Source: an uncultured Gammaproteobacteria bacterium
Lineage (GTDB): Bacteria; Patescibacteriota; Microgenomatia; Daviesbacterales; UBA10151
Direction of reading: 5' to 3'
Assembly (NCBI GenBank): GCA_964500725.1
Contig: CAZCNP010000002.1
Location: forward strand, 197,347-261,346
DNA: 64,000 nt
In this document: positions 8,997 through 50,476 of the stretch, one piece after another
Position numbering within the stretch: the first letter of the stretch is position 1
Layout: every line of letters begins with the position of its first letter
Made by a program: the position numbers and the translations under genes
The notes under the pieces: generated by a model
The model's input: only the letters and a program-made list of their open reading frames with translations
What the model was told of the DNA's origin: nothing
Database searches by the model: none

Positions 8997-9728
8997 TTAA
9001 GAACTTAAGAGATTAAATTTTACTATCTCCCATACTGCTTTAATACCATCTCTCCAACCTATTTTTTTACCCTCTGAGTAAGTTCTACCGGAGTAAGAAA
9101 TTCCAACTTCGAAAAGCTTTAATTCTGGCATTTTTGATATTCTTGCTGTTATTTCTGGTTCGAAACCGAATCTTTCGCTTTGTAAATCATTGGCAATTTG
9201 TCTAATTAAGTCCCCCTTAAAAGCTTTATAGCCTGATTCCATATCTGTTAAATTTAGATTGGTTAACATATTGGAAAAAGTAGTTAAGAGTATATTAATT
9301 TGATAATGCCAAAAATAAAGGACTCGATGAGGTCTATTTGAAATAAATCTTGATCCATAGACCACATTAGCTTCGTATCTGATAAATGGTTCTAGAAGAA
9401 GATGATAATCATTTGGATCGTATTCTAAGTCAGCGTCTTGAATAAGCACAATATCTCCGGTAGAAATTTTTAGTCCTTCCTTTATTGCTGCGCCCTTTCC
9501 CTTATTCTTTATTTTAGATATAATTTTAATATCAATTTTTGGATATTTAGTGCTTAAAATCTTAACTGTTTTTTTAATAACGGTTTTGGTGCCATCTTCT
9601 GATGCATCGTCGATAATTATTATTTCCTTATTAAGATTTAGAGAATCAGCTGCGCAAACTTGCAGAAGTGTTTTTCCGATAAATTTTTCTTCGTTATAAA
9701 CAGGGATAATTATTGATAACCCTTTCAT
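8997..9728 (-). CDS. GT2 polyprenyl-phosphate sugar synthase (Dpm1/GtrB/ArnC-like)
   Basis: LSIIIPVYNEEKFIGKTL...IIIIDDASEDGT...GAAIKEGL...IVLIQDADLEYDP. This is the DXD-containing signature of dolichol/undecaprenyl-phosphate hexosyltransferases. The protein is short (243 aa) and soluble-type. Confidence 0.75.
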   Translation of the reverse strand: MKGLSIIIPVYNEEKFIGKTLLQVCAADSLNLNKEIIIIDDASEDGTKTVIKKTVKILSTKYPKIDIKIISKIKNKGKGAAIKEGLKISTGDIVLIQDADLEYDPNDYHLLLEPFIRYEANVVYGSRFISNRPHRVLYFWHYQINILLTTFSNMLTNLNLTDMESGYKAFKGDLIRQIANDLQSERFGFEPEITARISKMPELKLFEVGISYSGRTYSEGKKIGWRDGIKAVWEIVKFNLLSS

Positions 9729-33276: not shown

Positions 33277-34612
33277 TAATTTAATAGACGTGGACTATAA
33301 TTCTGATCGGATTATGGAAAAAATAGTAGCTTTATGCAAAAGAAGAGGATTTGTGTTTCCTGGATCTGAGATCTATGGAGGACTTTCAAATTCTTGGGAC
33401 TATGGTCCTTTGGGAGTAGAGCTTAAAAATAATATTAAAAAAGCCTGGTGGAAAAGGTTTGTGCAAAAAAGAGAAGATATAGTAGGAATTGATGCAGCTT
33501 TGATAATGAACCCTAAAGTTTGGGAAGCATCAGGACATATTGCCAATTTTCAGGATCCTTTGGTGGAATGTAAAAACTGCCACAGCCGTTTTAGGGCAGA
33601 CCATATTAAAGATAACAAATGTCCAAATTGTGGAGCAGAAAATTCCTTTACAACAGAGAGGATGTTTAATTTAATGTTTAAAACATTTATTGGTCCAGCT
33701 GAGCAATCTTCTAATACAGCTTATTTTAGACCAGAAACAGCTCAGGCTATGTTTGTGGATTTTAGAAATGTGCTAGATACCAGCAGAATAAGGCTTCCTT
33801 TTGGAATTGCCCAAATTGGTAAAGCTTTCAGAAATGAAATTACCCCAGGCAATTTTATTTTTAGAACCAGGGAGTTTGAGCAGATGGAAATAGAATACTT
33901 TATTCCTGTTCCTAAAACTGATGCGGACTGGCAGCAAGTTTTTGAGCATTGGAGAAAAGAAATTTTAGCTTGGATCAAAGATGATTTAGGGGTAGATACC
34001 TCTAAAGTTTCTGAACATGAAATAGAAGAGGGTGAAAGGGCCCATTATTCTAAAAGAACAATTGATTTTGAATATGAATTTCCTTTTGGTGTTTCTGAAC
34101 TTTATGGACTGGCATATAGGACTGATTTTGATTTAAAAAATCATGAAAAGTTCTCTGGGCAAAATTTAAAGTATAGAGATCCAGAGTCTGGTGAGGAGTT
34201 TATACCACATGTAATAGAGCCTACATGGGGAGTAGACAGGTCGGTATTGGTTACTTTAATAGATGCTTACTGCGAAAATGAGGGCAGAGTAGTTTTAAAG
34301 CTTAAACCAAAGCTTGCTCCATATAAAGCAGCTGTTTTTCCACTGCTGGCTAATAAACCTGAGCTGGTTGAGAAAGCAAGAAAGATTTATCTTGACCTAA
34401 AGGAAGATTTCATGATAGCCTGGGATGACAGGGGTAATATTGGCAAAAGGTATGCCGCCCAAGATGAGATTGGTACCCCATTTTGTATAACAGTTGATTT
34501 TCAGAGCTTGGAAGATGAGGCTGTAACAGTCAGAGATAGAGACAGCGCTAAGCAGGAAAGAGTAAAGATAGTTGAGTTAAAAGATTACCTGCAAAAAAAG
34601 ATACATGGATAA
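33269..34612 (+). CDS. glyQS: Glycine--tRNA ligase (alpha2 homodimeric type)
   Basis: RGFVFPGSEIYGGLSNSWDYGPLG...class II motifs; about 447 aa, typical of GlyQS. Confidence 0.85.
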   Translation: MDNNLIDVDYNSDRIMEKIVALCKRRGFVFPGSEIYGGLSNSWDYGPLGVELKNNIKKAWWKRFVQKREDIVGIDAALIMNPKVWEASGHIANFQDPLVECKNCHSRFRADHIKDNKCPNCGAENSFTTERMFNLMFKTFIGPAEQSSNTAYFRPETAQAMFVDFRNVLDTSRIRLPFGIAQIGKAFRNEITPGNFIFRTREFEQMEIEYFIPVPKTDADWQQVFEHWRKEILAWIKDDLGVDTSKVSEHEIEEGERAHYSKRTIDFEYEFPFGVSELYGLAYRTDFDLKNHEKFSGQNLKYRDPESGEEFIPHVIEPTWGVDRSVLVTLIDAYCENEGRVVLKLKPKLAPYKAAVFPLLANKPELVEKARKIYLDLKEDFMIAWDDRGNIGKRYAAQDEIGTPFCITVDFQSLEDEAVTVRDRDSAKQERVKIVELKDYLQKKIHG

Positions 34613-35528
34613 GATAAAAGGTTTTATTTTCCGAAGGAAAACAGTCCAACGGTTTATTACTGCTCATAAAACTTTAAGTTTGGTTGTGATAGTTGGGTTA
34701 GTGGTGATTTTAGGTTACTTAGGGGTACAAAAACTCACTGCCAAACCAGAAGGCCCAGCAGAAGAGATAGATTTGGCTTTTGATGCAGAAGGTCCATATG
34801 CTCAGTTATTCCCCAGAAGAGATGGCAATGCTTTAGTATTAAACCTCAAAAGGACTAGTTCCTATGGCAGTATTTCCTATGAGCTGGCTTATACCAGCAC
34901 TCCTGATGAGACAGTAGTTGAGGGCAGAAAAATTCTAGATGAAGGAGAGGGAGGAAGTGATGTTGGATCAATAGATAGAGGAGTAGTGGGAACTATTGAT
35001 ACTAAAGAAAAGAAGGGTGAGTATGAGCAGGAGATTTTATTTGGCAGCTGCAGCAAGAATGTTTGCAAGTATGATAAAGGTGTTGAAAATGGGACTTTAA
35101 CTTTAAAGATCCAAAAGGGAAATAAAATTTACAGGATGGTTACCCAGTGGCATTTGCAAAAACCAGATGTGGCTTTAGGAAGTTTAACATCCGGAGATGG
35201 GCATCTACTCTATAAGGTAGATGGGGATAGACAAACTTTAGCTAATATTGGTTTTACTATTATTAATGATTTAACAGGATTGCCAAAATTGCCTTCAGGA
35301 AAGGAAGTTACAGGAAAGGTTTATTCTTTAAATGTTCCAATTGCTAAGGAGTTGTCTAAAGGTGAGGTTAGTTTAGAGTTGGCAGAAAATCCAAAAGCTG
35401 GATCAAAACTTTATAGGTTTAATGGAAATAAAGGTGAGTGGCAGGAGTTGGATACAAAGATTGAGGGAAGTAAGTTATCTGCTAAAGCAGAAGGTGCTGG
35501 GATATTTACTGTTTTAACTTCTAAGTAG
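34605..35528 (+). CDS. Hypothetical membrane-anchored exported protein
   Basis: N-terminal TM (LSLVVIVGLVVILGYLGV) and a hydrophilic Gly/Lys-rich domain; no family recognised. Confidence 0.4.
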   Translation: MDKIKGFIFRRKTVQRFITAHKTLSLVVIVGLVVILGYLGVQKLTAKPEGPAEEIDLAFDAEGPYAQLFPRRDGNALVLNLKRTSSYGSISYELAYTSTPDETVVEGRKILDEGEGGSDVGSIDRGVVGTIDTKEKKGEYEQEILFGSCSKNVCKYDKGVENGTLTLKIQKGNKIYRMVTQWHLQKPDVALGSLTSGDGHLLYKVDGDRQTLANIGFTIINDLTGLPKLPSGKEVTGKVYSLNVPIAKELSKGEVSLELAENPKAGSKLYRFNGNKGEWQELDTKIEGSKLSAKAEGAGIFTVLTSK

Positions 35529-35552
35529 TTTCCTTAATGGTGGCTCGTTGGT

Positions 35553-35627
35553 GTACAAAAAACCGCTCGCACGGTAGAAACTTGCTCACTTGGTGATAAT
35601 TTTTTGTTTACACTCAACTTCGCCACT
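35553..35627 (+). repeat. Copy A of a repeated intergenic element: GTACAAAAAA(C/T)CGCTCGCAC ... TTGCTC(A/G)CTTGGTG ... ATTTTTTGTTTAC + ACTTCGCCACT. Upstream of mraZ.
   Basis: Direct comparison with copies at 40324..40493 and 50297..50427; terminal inverted 11-13 nt GTACAAAAAAY / ATTTTTTGTTTAC. Confidence 0.6.
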
Positions 35628-35714
35628 CGATTTTGTAATCCAGTATTTTCCCACTTGACAAATATATTCAAAATGGTTGAAAATGAGAATAGATGGTGAA
35701 TCTGCCCAAAGTAT

Positions 35715-39130: not shown

Positions 39131-40318
39131 ATGAAAAAATTAATTAAAAATATTCTTTCTCAGGAATTTATTAACAACTTTTATCATCTTCCAAAGGCTG
39201 TTTTGGCAAATATTATCTATGGCTCCCCTACCAGGGGAATGAAGGTTGTGGGGGTAACAGGAACTGATGGAAAAACTACCACAACTAATATGATTTATGA
39301 GGTTTTAAAAGCTGCTGGTAAAAAGGTTTCTATGGTTTCTACAGTTAATGCTGTTGTTGGAGGAAAAGCTTTTGATACAGGGTTTCATGTGACCTCTCCT
39401 GATCCATTTGCTGTGCAAAAGTTTGCCAAACTTGCTAAAGAGAGCAATGCTGAGTATTTGGTGCTGGAGGCAACTTCTCATGCTTTGGACCAGTATAGAT
39501 TTTGGGGAATAAAATTTGATATGGGGGTAATTACTAATATTACTCATGAGCATTTGGATTATCATAAAACTTTTGACAATTACCAAAAGATCAAACTTAC
39601 TCTTATTAAAGAAACAGAGTTTGCTATTGTAAATCAAAACATCAAAGGAATTAAAAGAAAAACTATCACATTTGGTTTAGAAAAAGGAGATTTTAACCAA
39701 AAAGAAATTAAATTAAAGCTTAAAGTTTTGGGTGATTACAATATTGAAAATGCTTTGGCAGCTTTAGCTGTAGCTTTTGCTTTAGGGATTAATAAAACAG
39801 TGGCCCAAAGGGCTCTGGAAAATTTTGGAGGAGTAAAAGGAAGGATGGAGGAGGTTAAAAATACTAAAGGGATAAAAATTATAGTAGATTTTGCTCATAC
39901 CCCAAATGCTTTAGAAAATGTTTTAAAAACTTTAAGCAAAGAAACAGCAGGGAGGTTAATTGCTGTGTTTGGGTCTGCGGGAAAAAGGGATGTGGAAAAA
40001 AGAGAGCTTATGGGGGCAATTGCTGGGAAGTTGGCTGATTTAATAGTAGTTACAGCAGAGGATCCAAGGGGGGAGCTAGAAATTATTAATAAACAAATTA
40101 TTAAAGGGGTGGAAAAGAGTGGGAAAAATTTGGGAAGAAGTTTGTTTGTAGAAGCAGACAGAGGTAAGGCAATTAATTTTGCAGTAAATGAATTGGCAAG
40201 AAAAGGGGATACTGTAGGAATTTTTGGTAAAGGACATGAGGGGTCTATGAATTTAGATGGAAAGAAGGAGATTCCATGGTCGGATGTAGATGTTGTTAAG
40301 CAAATATTAGACAACTAG
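39131..40318 (+). CDS. murE: Mur ligase, probably MurE (UDP-MurNAc-tripeptide synthetase), lacking the usual N-terminal domain
   Basis: P-loop VVGVTGTDGKTTTTNMI, the central Mur ligase domain and a C-terminal domain; only 395 aa; position after ftsI. Confidence 0.6.
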   Translation: MKKLIKNILSQEFINNFYHLPKAVLANIIYGSPTRGMKVVGVTGTDGKTTTTNMIYEVLKAAGKKVSMVSTVNAVVGGKAFDTGFHVTSPDPFAVQKFAKLAKESNAEYLVLEATSHALDQYRFWGIKFDMGVITNITHEHLDYHKTFDNYQKIKLTLIKETEFAIVNQNIKGIKRKTITFGLEKGDFNQKEIKLKLKVLGDYNIENALAALAVAFALGINKTVAQRALENFGGVKGRMEEVKNTKGIKIIVDFAHTPNALENVLKTLSKETAGRLIAVFGSAGKRDVEKRELMGAIAGKLADLIVVTAEDPRGELEIINKQIIKGVEKSGKNLGRSLFVEADRGKAINFAVNELARKGDTVGIFGKGHEGSMNLDGKKEIPWSDVDVVKQILDN

Positions 40319-40323
40319 CCACA

Positions 40324-40493
40324 GTACAAAAAATCGCTCGCACTATAAGCAGAGCTTTCCTTTTTGGCTTCGCCAAAAACGTAGAGATTTGCTCGCTTGG
40401 TGGCAATTTTGTCATATAGAATAAACTCGATTCATTGAGTTTGCTGATACAAAATTGTCAACATTTTTTGTTTACTTGTGGCTTCGTTGTCCG
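40324..40493 (+). repeat. Copy B (longest) of the repeated intergenic element, upstream of the murB fragment. Contains an internal perfect hairpin TTTTTGGC-TTC-GCCAAAAA.
   Basis: Shares GTACAAAAAATCGCTCGCAC, TTGCTCGCTTGGTG, CTCGATTCATTGAGTT, ACATTTTTTGTTTAC with copy C. Confidence 0.6.
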
Positions 40494-40515: not shown

Positions 40516-41100
40516 ATGGACTCGAAATACAAGTTGATAATTGATTCTTTTGGTAAAGATAGGTTTAAATTTAATGAGCCTTTGAAAGATTATACTGCCT
40601 TGCAGGTAGGTGGGCCTGCAAAACTTTTTTTTATTGCTTTTACTGACAGGGAACTTATTAAAATAGTAGGGATGTGCAGAGATTTAAATCTTCCATTCTT
40701 TCTTTTCGGCACAGGCAGCAAAATAATGATTTCTGATGCAGGATTTAACGGATTGGTCATAAAAAACAGGACCAAAAATATCCAAACAATTTCTGTTAAA
40801 GGCAAAGTTACAAAGTATGGTATAGGTGTAGCTGAAGCCTTAATAGAGGTGGAATCAGGGGTCAGTATAAAAAAATGGATAGAGTATTTAGATTCTCAGG
40901 GTTTAGAATCAGCTGAGTTTAAAAGTATTCCAGGAAGTATTGGAGGAAGTTTGCTGATCAGCAGGTTTTTGCAAAACCGCATCAAAAATATTAAAGTATT
41001 AGACTTAAAATCAGAAGTGGAGGAAATTGATATTGAGACTTTAAGTCCAAAAAAGCATATAATAATATCAGCTGTTTTTAGGATTAAAGCCAAAGGATAA
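40516..41100 (+). CDS. murB: UDP-N-acetylenolpyruvoylglucosamine reductase MurB, FAD-binding N-terminal part only (C-terminal catalytic subdomain absent)
   Basis: YTALQVGGPAKLFFIAFTDRELIKIV...LPFFLFGTGSKIMISDAGFNGLVI...IPGSIGGSL match the MurB FAD-binding domain and hinge. The ORF stops at 194 aa and murA starts 6 nt later. Confidence 0.6.
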   Translation: MDSKYKLIIDSFGKDRFKFNEPLKDYTALQVGGPAKLFFIAFTDRELIKIVGMCRDLNLPFFLFGTGSKIMISDAGFNGLVIKNRTKNIQTISVKGKVTKYGIGVAEALIEVESGVSIKKWIEYLDSQGLESAEFKSIPGSIGGSLLISRFLQNRIKNIKVLDLKSEVEEIDIETLSPKKHIIISAVFRIKAKG

Positions 41101-49110: not shown

Positions 49111-50274
49111 ATGTTAATTAAACCTGATGTTCAAAGATTTGCCAAGATAAAAGTAGTAGGTTTGGGTGGTGGTGGATCTAACTCTTTAAACTCCATGATT
49201 TCTCTTCAGCAAATCCAAGGTGTTGAGTTTGTGGCAGTAAATACAGATGCTCAAGCACTAATGAACAATCAGTCTCCTACTAAGGTTCAAATTGGAGAGA
49301 CTTTAACAAAAGGTTTGGGATCTGGAGGAGATCCAGAAGTGGGAAAGCAGGCAGCTGAGGAGTCTACTCAAAAGATTGAAGATGTTTTGCAGGATGCTGA
49401 TATGGTTTTTTTGACAGCTGGTATGGGGGGAGGGACAGGCACAGGATCTATTCCAGTAGTAGCCCAGGTTGCTAAAACCATTGGAGCTTTAACTGTGGCT
49501 GTGGTAACAAAGCCTTTTTCTTTTGAAGGAACTAGAAGGATGGTAGTTGCTGAGGAAGGTTTGGAAAAATTAAGAGATAAGGTTGATGCTTTAATTGTTA
49601 TTCCTAACCAAAGGCTTTTAGAAAATGTAGAGAAAAATATGACTTTACAGGAAGCATTTAAACTGGCTGATTCAGTTTTGGGACAAGGAGTCCAGGGTAT
49701 TTCTGACCTTATTACTATGCCTGGACTTATTAATGTTGATTTTGCTGATGTGAAAACTATTATGAGCAATGCAGGATCTGCTCTTATGGGTATTGGGGTA
49801 GCTGGTGGAGAAAATAGAGCAGCTGCTGCAGCTAGAATGGCTATTGCTTCCCCACTTTTGGAGGTATCAATTGAGGGGGCTAAAGGAGTTCTGTTTAATA
49901 TTGTTGGGGGATCTGATCTTTCTATGACTGAGGTTAACGAGGCAGCCCAGATTATTGCTCAAGCTGCAGATCCTGATGCTAATATTATCTTTGGAGCAAC
50001 CATCAAGGAGGATCAATTAGACCAGGTTAAAATTTCAGTAATAGCTACAGGTTTTGATGAAACCAGAAGAAGACTGCGGGAATATATAGGAAATGGGATT
50101 GGATCTGCATCATTACAATCACAGCCTGGGGCCTGGGCAAGGCAGTCTACTCCAGCAGATGATGTCCAATCTCAGCAAACTGTTTCAGATTCTCAAGATG
50201 AAGCAGAAGAGCAAAAAGCAGAAGATGAGGATGAAGATTTAGAAATTCCTGCATTTTTAAGATCAAGCCGCTAA
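49111..50274 (+). CDS. ftsZ: Cell division GTPase FtsZ
   Basis: Tubulin signature [17 protein letters not shown]; acidic C-terminal tail. Confidence 0.95.
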
Positions 50275-50296
50275 AGTTCTAATGTGGCTTGTTCAT

Positions 50297-50427
50297 GTAC
50301 AAAAAATCGCTCGCACTCTAGAAAGTTGCTCGCTTGATGTTTGTTTTGTATTAAATCTAGCTCGATTCATTGAGTTGGTACTATACAAAATTGCACAACA
50401 TTTTTTGTTTACATTGAACTTCGCCAC
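50297..50427 (+). repeat. Copy C of the repeated intergenic element, upstream of ileS
   Basis: GTACAAAAAATCGCTCGCAC...GTTGCTCGCTTGATG...CTCGATTCATTGAGTT...ACATTTTTTGTTTAC ATTGAACTTCGCCACT. Confidence 0.6.
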
Positions 50428-50476
50428 TGATTAAAGTACCTGGTCAGTTTAAGGTTAATCTGCTAAAATTGAGCTC

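Follow-up and report, generated by a model that had tools for sequence, protein, structure and literature searches.

The stretch of DNA considered here (contig CAZCNP010000002.1, positions 197,347 to 261,346 of the forward strand; 64,000 nt in full, hereafter the window) has a GC content of 34% and contains a dcw cluster in which a short structured element is repeated three times, in copies named A, B, and C. Copy A begins 10 nt after the TAG stop codon (35526-35528) of an uncharacterised 307-aa open reading frame (ORF, 34605-35528) and is located 5' of the mraZ promoter. Copy B separates a Mur ligase ORF (TAG at 40316-40318) from a gene for a short MurB, both recognized by Pfam analysis of the flanking ORFs, and copy C starts 9 nt after the TAA of ftsZ (50272-50274), 5' of the ileS promoter, with the IleRS gene next. 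The 20-mer GTACAAAAAAYCGCTCGCAC occurs on the + strand of the window exactly three times, at 35553, 40324, and 50297, while 0 occurrences are expected (100 dinucleotide-preserving shuffles), and the copies can be aligned end to end; the three homologous, equally oriented copies of the original prediction, which was made from the letters of the window, are therefore real. Neither nhmmer with left-half and right-half profiles nor a covariance model (CM) revealed a fourth copy in the 64 kb. It was also pointed out in the prediction that the copies sit in long intergenic gaps, which is circular, since the element itself lengthens the gap.

The window MurA shares 80% identity with proteins that carry the name Candidatus Daviesbacteria, and the dcw cluster is syntenic with contigs of Daviesbacteria metagenome-assembled genomes (MAGs). 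When 185,579 species-representative genomes were scanned for the 20-mer, 11 loci were returned, nine of which, all in Daviesbacteria-type MAGs, contain the whole element. The remaining two (L002 and L010; L-numbers denote fetched loci, such as those carrying the element or orthologous sites) were discarded as chance matches, with a GC content of 48-56% and the remaining part of the element absent. Seventeen loci were obtained from a metagenome scan with a gapped pattern. L012 was dropped as a chance pattern match, as it was not recovered by the CM. The model R1, built from 11 copies, detected 36 copies (34 distinct) in the fetched DNA. This census covers the fetched DNA only, and the density of about one copy per 20-30 kb is an estimate. 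In viral contigs, a 17-mer scan gave three chance matches, of which none was confirmed by the CM, and a phage origin is unsupported. As judged from these scans, the family is confined to sequences of Candidatus Daviesbacteria, which are uncultivated bacteria of groundwater. At the gathering thresholds of Rfam 15, only two tRNAs in the whole window reach the gathering score, and in E-value mode the best match of copies B and C scores 20 bits against a cut-off of 55 (E at least 0.38); the element is thus matched by no Rfam family and is no known riboswitch, as had been supposed. No description of it was found in a full-text search of the literature on repeats of Daviesbacteria, the Candidate Phyla Radiation, or Patescibacteria, and it is apparently previously undescribed. 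It is also worth mentioning that the element is present at L006, L009, and L011 (CAZAZW01, CAZKCV01) in MAGs titled "uncultured Gammaproteobacteria"; L006 is nearly collinear with Daviesbacteria JACPDA01 (L003), which points to mislabelled or chimeric bins.

Architecture and covariation of the fold

The full-length element comprises about 155 nt. Forms with deletions have 60-105 nt, and those with insertions up to about 210 nt. Its ends are joined by a closing helix of about 22 bp in total, with a conserved internal loop and bulge. From the outside inwards, this helix starts with P1a, a stem of 5-6 bp whose sequence varies. Next come a 2x3 internal loop (UC / UUC), which is conserved and bounded by C-G and G-C pairs that are invariant, and P1b (5-6 bp, again variable). 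Innermost is the nearly invariant P2, an A6/U6 helix in which GUA-CAAAAAAU is paired with AUUUUUUG-UU-UAC, leaving a two-U bulge. The junction bears a small hairpin, PJ, in which the direct repeats CGCUCGCA and UGCUCGC oppose each other below a variable loop. An optional arm, P3 (UGAG-U-AUUUUGUG / CACAAAAU-C-CUCA), is capped by a variable region, and its loop is often AUCAUUNAG. All the sub-features listed in the prediction (inverted repeat, GC-rich 9-mers, small hairpin, and a perfect hairpin in copy B) are present: GTACAAAAAA...ATTTTTTGTTTAC is helix P2, CGCTCGCAC together with TTGCTCGCTTG is the PJ hairpin, the 3' strand of the outer helix corresponds to ACTTCGCCAC, and AACTCGATTCATTGAGTT is the tip of the P3 arm in copies B and C.

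Copy A (35539..35627, + strand; 89.5 bits with CM R1) is a short form without the P3 arm. Its P1a pairs GGTGGC (35539-35544) with GCCACT (35622-35627), P1b and P2 together pair 35547-35563 with 35599-35618, and PJ pairs GCA (35569-35571) with TGC (35583-35585); the minimum free energy (MFE) of its fold is -26.4 kcal/mol (z = -3.2). Copy B (40310..40491, + strand; CM 144 bits) is a long form with P1a formed by GACAAC (40310-40315) and GTTGTC (40486-40491), P1b and P2 by 40318-40334 and 40463-40482, PJ by 40340-40342 and 40390-40392, and P3, with the tip hairpin AACTCGATTCATTGAGTT, by 40401-40413 and 40448-40460 (MFE -61.6 kcal/mol, z = -6.35). Alignment gaps reveal in its PJ loop an insertion of 36-37 nt (40344..40380, + strand), present among the window copies in B only, and the perfect hairpin TTTTTGGC-TTC-GCCAAAAA (40361-40379) lies inside it; a homologous insertion (TATAAGCAAGCTT...) was found in the L040 copy 3' of ftsZ. 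Copy C (50284..50427, + strand; CM 141.6 bits), also a long form, has P1a from GTGGC (50284-50288) and GCCAC (50423-50427), P1b and P2 from 50291-50307 and 50400-50419, PJ from 50313-50315 and 50327-50329, and P3 from 50338-50350 and 50384-50397 (MFE -42.3 kcal/mol, z = -4.1). Compared with these extents, the predicted copies were correctly positioned but slightly too short, as the outer covarying helix had been missed. Reading of both strands by eye identified no small ORF in the element except MLRILC* and the copy-C-specific MYKKSLAL*, and, when a target in trans was looked for, the complement of the GCUCGC motif was found in the window only in the elements themselves.

RNAalifold, applied to a plain MAFFT alignment, predicted 37 pairs, of which 15 are compensatory, and folding of single sequences led to the same architecture (z between -3.0 and -6.4 for the full and short forms, -0.8 for a 52-nt mini-copy). 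Among the 34 distinct copies, 93.8% of the pair cells are standard pairs, and double-sided changes occur in 28 of the 37 pairs (124 cells). The alignment used for these counts was fitted to the model and favours structure; the MAFFT alignment yielded the same helices. In the controls, none of 500 shuffles matched the observed values, and sliding the 3' partner by 1-3 columns left 32-48% paired. For P1b and the outer part of P2 at least 12 versions are found (TCACA, TTGGT, TTCAT, CCACA, TCGCA, TCTGG+GCC, TATGG+GCC, TCAGT, and others), each with a matching 3' arm, and even in a 60-nt mini-copy reduced to the outer hairpin, P1b is compensated (TCACT/AGTGA). Such a number of versions is hard to explain by two co-evolving transposase-binding ends and indicates base pairing. 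The fold is kept by compensatory substitutions and is under selection; this part of the earlier suggestion of a structured RNA holds, while the RNA role itself rests on inference. The P3 arm is missing from the short forms (window copy A, L007, L013, L015, L021, L025, and L026), whose deletion junctions differ. An extension of PJ by two outer pairs was considered and dropped, as five copies break the pairing (CTCACTTG/CTCTCTTG); in the divergent L031 copy, both C/U mismatches become Watson-Crick pairs.

Placement behind genes and turnover between genomes

In all 29 copies with a recognisable upstream ORF, this ORF is on the element's strand, and in 26 of the 29 the end of its stop codon falls within a stretch reaching from 12 nt ahead of the model start to 10 nt past it. 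The stop codon often abuts the first pair or is placed inside the element, as the TAG in the outer-helix internal loop of window copy B and the TAA in P2 of L030. The downstream gene is mostly encoded on the same strand and starts 0-80 nt past the model end, the next start codon being often 9-16 nt past the helix and in many cases without a clear Shine-Dalgarno sequence; it is convergent at L016/L020 and L028, and at L011 a tRNA with its own TTGGAA-N17-TATAAT promoter lies 3' of the element. Among the copies examined, none is located between divergent genes. The genes next to the element are housekeeping genes unrelated to one another (pth, jag, atpC, dcd/thyA, rpsC|rplP, purB|purE, rpsB|tsf, recO|glyS, comEA|comEC, recF, trxB, tpiA, and others). 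Each copy thus lies in sense orientation directly after a stop codon, in a 3' untranslated end (A and C) or in a same-strand spacer (B).

This placement bears on the idea, put forward in the prediction, that the element is a shared promoter-leader module, or one controlled by MraZ, which drives mraZ, murB-murA-murF, and ileS. All three window copies are indeed 5' of + strand genes, and the right-end TTTAC(A/T) can in some copies be matched with a weak -10 (TTTACA-18-TAAAGT in copy C). However, reading of the flanks by eye revealed no conserved -10 after TTTAC, with neither hexamer nor spacing conserved, and across the family it is the upstream stop codon that is the fixed partner, while the downstream genes are unrelated or convergent. 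Moreover, an alignment of these intergenic regions with those of relatives, along with a promoter scan, located the actual promoters of mraZ and ileS 3' of the element. The mraZ promoter (35655..35699, + strand) has a -35 TTGACA at 35655-35660, followed by three repeats with 10-nt spacing, AAAATGGTTG / AAAATGAGAA / TAGATGGTGA (35670-35699), and is conserved in L030-L034, L040, and L013 with or without the element. For ileS, an extended -10, TGCTAAAAT, is found at 50461..50469 (+ strand), 7 nt before the ATG (50477), and TGnTAnAAT is likewise present 7 nt before the ileS ATG in L031 (19094-19131) and L034 (16430-16454), both without the element. Since these promoters are 3' of copies A and C and are kept without the element, the two copies belong to 3' untranslated ends and are not leaders. 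MraZ boxes are known from other bacteria, and by analogy with them, the repeats at 35670-35699 are likely the MraZ operator. The TTGGTG strings, which had been said to resemble MraZ boxes, are strands of the stem and appear also in copies B and C; an operator within the element was rejected, as the conserved 10-nt repeats are outside it and present in relatives that lack it. A promoter or leader role is, all in all, very improbable. The short distance between the extended -10 and the ATG suggests, as a separate observation, that the ileS mRNA in these bacteria is leaderless.

The history of the sites was followed in the dcw clusters of ten relatives, fetched via MurA homologues and placed on a MurA+MurB tree. 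Across the 11 genomes, the occupation of the three dcw sites varies between a copy, a remnant, and none. At the murE|murB site, the element is present in the window and in the sister L038, a divergent subtype occupies L030 and L040, a remnant is left in L033, and no copy is present in L029, L034, L039, and L032, whose two genes share 8 nt at this junction. 5' of the mraZ promoter, a copy is present in the window, L013, and L040, a 5' remnant is left in L031, and the site is empty elsewhere; after ftsZ, only the window and L040 have a copy, and in the relatives without one this place is taken by ordinary hairpin-plus-U-run terminators (L030, L039), by inserts of another kind, or by a gene for a Y1 transposase. 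All three sites are filled in L040, with 72% MurA/MurB identity, whereas closer relatives have none filled. Copies within a genome tend to resemble one another more than they resemble orthologous copies, and the window and L040 share one PJ-loop insertion variant, each at another site. The family is gained, internally deleted, and lost between genomes; the patchy occupation of sites and the likeness within genomes are the behaviour of a mobile or recombining repeat family. Two further observations concern the murE/murB junction. In L031 (~9405-9435), a 13-nt tandem duplication, TGGATAATAAATA x2, is located exactly at the element's site, and it could be a footprint or a pre-insertion state uncoupling the overlapping genes. 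The MurB protein has 192-198 aa and FAD_binding_4 only (window 40516-41100; orthologues in L029-L041), and its gene mostly overlaps the preceding Mur ligase gene by 8 nt.

Side by side with this turnover, constraint can be seen. The copy after jag is identical in 137 of 144 nt (95%) between L003 and L024, while the four-fold sites of both flanking genes are only 46-50% identical, and in the three-way alignment of L003, L006, and L024 the element is the most conserved block in 700 nt. For other pairs of orthologous copies, conservation is lower. As far as these comparisons of sequences go, the constraint on copies appears uneven but real.

With both aspects at hand, two alternatives have to be considered. 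The first one assumes that the element is a purely selfish non-autonomous transposon, i.e., a MITE (miniature inverted-repeat transposable element), with a hairpin needed in DNA, as terminal inverted repeats or as a single-stranded hairpin at the fork, and with no host function; the stop-codon position would be merely where insertions are tolerated in a compact genome. The termini are inverted, imperfect, and about 24-28 nt long (GCAGC-TCG-TCACA-GTA-CAAAAAAT and ATTTTTTG-TT-TAC-T-TGTGA-CTTC-GCTGC), long and short forms exist side by side, and orthologous sites are patchy, with remnants and with ORFs running into the element. The closer likeness of copies within a genome and the PJ-loop variant shared by different sites of different genomes fit this model too, as do the enrichment of TA(A) on both flanks, the lack of a G-U excess in the stems, and an orientation following the G-rich strand. 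The flank signals, UA(A) at the head and YUU-AAA at the tail, are both position-specific, and that on the left is confounded by the stop codon. However, contrary to what is expected of transposase-bound ends, the termini are the most variable part of the element and covary in at least 12 combinations, and the orthologous copy of L003, L006, and L024 has kept 95% identity although neutral sites are saturated there. Furthermore, the fetched Daviesbacteria DNA, which amounts to only about 385 kb, contains no insertion sequence with matching ends and no ends that are orphan or widely spaced. In relatives, Y1 transposase genes are located at the intergenic positions also used by the element, which speaks for a MITE, but they are flanked by different 15-nt hairpins, and a link to them was dropped. 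Of the MITE-like character already proposed in the prediction, the dispersed and patchy distribution and the remnants stand; the covarying termini and the 95% identical ortholog speak against a purely selfish nature, which is rather unlikely.

The Y1 transposase genes deserve a description of their own. Y1_Tnp (PF01797, RAYT/IS200-like) genes were identified in L034 (15677-16351, -), L041 (19283-19954, -, and 7447-8097, -), L029 (6952-7635, -), and L004 (1820-2506, +). They lie in the same permissive intergenic spots of the Daviesbacteria dcw clusters, twice exactly between ftsZ and ileS. Those of L034 and L004 are bordered by short REP-like hairpins (ACACCCTTAGGGTGT; CAACCCCAGGGGTTG), which are unrelated to the element, and in L029 a solo CCACACCTGGTGTGG hairpin follows ftsZ.

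The second alternative sees in the element a new functional class of structured RNA (a protein-binding site, an RNase signal, a conditional terminator, or a self-cleaving ribozyme), used by the host as modular gene-end punctuation, with the multi-copy state reached via duplication and selection instead of transposition. It draws on the core (CAAAAAAUCGCUCGCAC, UUGCUCGCUUG, CAUUUUUUG, and ACUUCGC), which is invariant across genomes with saturated silent sites, on the strong covariation around this core, on the conserved internal loop and bulge, on the retention of copies at shared sites (rpsB|tsf, MFS|recF, comEA|comEC, jag, and the dcw sites) in genomes with only 70-80% protein identity, and on the lack of an Rfam match. 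Against it, copies are missing at the same sites in close relatives with no obvious replacement, P3 is dispensable and deletion derivatives are common, the interiors of the L030 and L040 copies are decayed, the flanking genes share no functional theme, and no partner protein or RNA was identified. Such a class, established without transposition, is considered improbable.

A putative hairpin at 3' ends and its relation to known repeats

The explanation favoured here, to which a probability of roughly 0.6 is assigned, is that the element is a dispersed structured repeat that would be part of the upstream gene's transcript and work in cis, as a hairpin at the 3' end or between cistrons. The strict sense orientation, the stop-codon position, and the selected fold fit a cis-acting element co-transcribed with the upstream gene, within whose mRNA it would operate. 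The closed helix might serve as a stable 3' hairpin that protects the upstream message, as a weak terminator or read-through attenuator, or as a processing site for a double-strand-specific RNase. It may also loop the insert out compactly, holding the stop codon and the next start codon a few nt apart at the foot of the helix, which would explain why P1 is selected for pairing and not for sequence. In addition, the A6/U6 helix would set a U-run after the internal hairpins on both strands, and this terminator-like layout could explain the fixed sequence of P2 among covarying outer helices; a simple terminator scan flagged a site of this A6/U6 type on the minus strand of copy A. It is proposed that the family spread in a MITE-like manner, probably into TA(A)-containing sites at gene ends, and that some copies later came under host-level constraint. 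A more specific version assumes a new class of three-way-junction RNA, put directly behind stop codons and characterized by the invariant A6/U6 helix and the hairpin with two GCUCGC repeats, that would act as spreadable punctuation for mRNA 3'-end formation or intercistronic processing and be read by a factor or self-cleaving; this version is unlikely as it stands.

A number of observations weigh against the proposed co-transcribed hairpin. The canonical U-tract after the outer helix is missing in the window copies, whose tails are CUCGAUUUUG, CCGUUAUCG, and UGAUUAAAG, and in the family only nine of 34 copies have four or more T among the first 6 nt. Strong termination cannot be the role of those copies that lie within operons (rpsC|rplP, murE|murB, rpsB|tsf). 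In the stems, G-U and A-C mismatches number 28 vs 23 (20 vs 14 in an earlier set), which is not significant and carries no strand signal, so the data are silent on whether the folded strand is RNA or single-stranded DNA. Every copy is placed on the G-rich strand and in the local majority gene orientation, and the orientation may follow replication and not transcription. The interiors of window copy B and the L038 copy, as well as those of L040 and L030, are diverged. Finally, neither a matching transposase nor a proven target-site duplication was found in the fetched loci. A positive GC skew on the + strand throughout the window (0.09-0.26), where about 86% of the coding sequence is encoded, was noted independently.

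Bacteria of the Candidate Phyla Radiation have tiny genomes and cannot be grown alone, and to our knowledge almost nothing is known about how transcripts are ended, processed, and balanced in them. The element is a phylum-specific, structure-selected module at the 3' ends of unrelated housekeeping genes, including dcw cluster boundaries, and the CM together with the invariant 20-mer provides a searchable handle on mRNA 3'-end biology in these uncultivated bacteria. It is also a clean case in which to ask how constraint comes to act on a mobile repeat at a given site. The consequence for annotation is that element-bearing gaps should not be labelled as mraZ or ileS leaders.

By analogy, the nearest systems in kind appear to be the small structured interspersed repeats, i.e., BOX, SPRITE, Correia, ERIC, bcr1, and REP. 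The pneumococcal BOX and SPRITE repeats are short, structured, non-coding, and multi-copy, occupy intergenic regions, and are co-transcribed with their neighbours (Croucher et al., 2011; PMC3049150). In BOX, which is modular, the outer modules pair and the interior varies in length, while SPRITE lies near the 3' ends of coding sequences, is terminator-like, and has possibly taken on a terminator role by co-option; roughly half of the insertions are common to strains, the strand bias is only about 61-63%, and all intergenic contexts are used (PMC3049150). The Daviesbacteria element is like them in being a short structured dispersed repeat with a variable interior, 3'-end placement, and patchy sites. 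It differs in having no sequence relationship to them and another host phylum, in that every copy is in sense orientation and abuts the upstream stop codon, in its covarying outer stems, and in one ortholog that is far more conserved than silent sites.

Correia/NEMIS of Neisseria, ERIC/IRU of enterobacteria, and bcr1 of the Bacillus cereus group are 100-160 nt long and have long inverted termini that form a hairpin in mRNA. They exist in full-length and internally deleted classes, are co-transcribed with their neighbours, have TA-type targets, and insert in either orientation, and they can affect mRNA stability, processing (by RNase III in the case of Correia), or termination. Compared by description only, the element is similar to them in size, inverted termini, and size classes, whereas the sense-only orientation, the invariant A6/U6 helix, and the GCUCGC-repeat hairpin set it apart. 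Repetitive extragenic palindromes (REPs) are GC-rich, have 20-40 nt, stabilise the upstream mRNA from the 3' ends of genes, and flank a RAYT gene. A conserved 3'-end hairpin and Y1 transposase genes in the same genomes recall the REP/REPIN-RAYT system, but the element, with 90-190 nt and an AT-rich core helix, is unlike a REP, and the Y1_Tnp genes are bordered by the unrelated hairpins ACACCCTTAGGGTGT and CAACCCCAGGGGTTG. A REP/RAYT origin was rejected, as the Y1_Tnp flanks in L004, L029, and L034 are unrelated to the element, with 15-nt hairpins in L004 and L034 and no match in L029.

In the intercistronic RNase III sites of phage T7, irregular hairpins have about 20 bp and an internal loop, and after cleavage the upstream message ends in a 3' hairpin that protects it. 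The element is like them in structure, as an irregular hairpin with an internal loop between genes; unlike these sites, it belongs to a chromosome, has arms and an extra junction that is conserved, and is gained and lost between genomes. Integron attC sites are strand-specific imperfect hairpins just after an ORF, with conserved bulged bases, variable terminal structure, and covarying arms, and the element is likewise a strand-specific imperfect hairpin directly 3' of an ORF. It was nevertheless not accepted as an attC site: the R'' RYYYAAC and R' GTTRRRY boxes are absent, the ends are of the GCAGC/GCTGC type and variable, the genes are housekeeping genes in synteny without cassettes, and the internal sequence is conserved. 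A palindrome-associated transposable element (PATE) derived from IS200/IS605 was also dismissed, since the element has a single nested fold, its PJ and P3 are unrelated in sequence, and it does not have two similar direct subterminal hairpins. A plain intrinsic terminator, of which a + strand scan found none in the copies, was excluded because the hairpin is not followed by a U-tract (nine of 34 with at least four T); the internal U6 behind P3 may be an alternative. What sets the element apart from the known structured repeats is the strict sense orientation, the abutting stop codon, the covarying termini, and the invariant core. In the L028 copy (2136-2258), an insertion of about 120 nt is nested, with the 19-nt direct repeat AGCTCGCAAGCTATGCTTA at both its ends, which suggests a second small repeat family.

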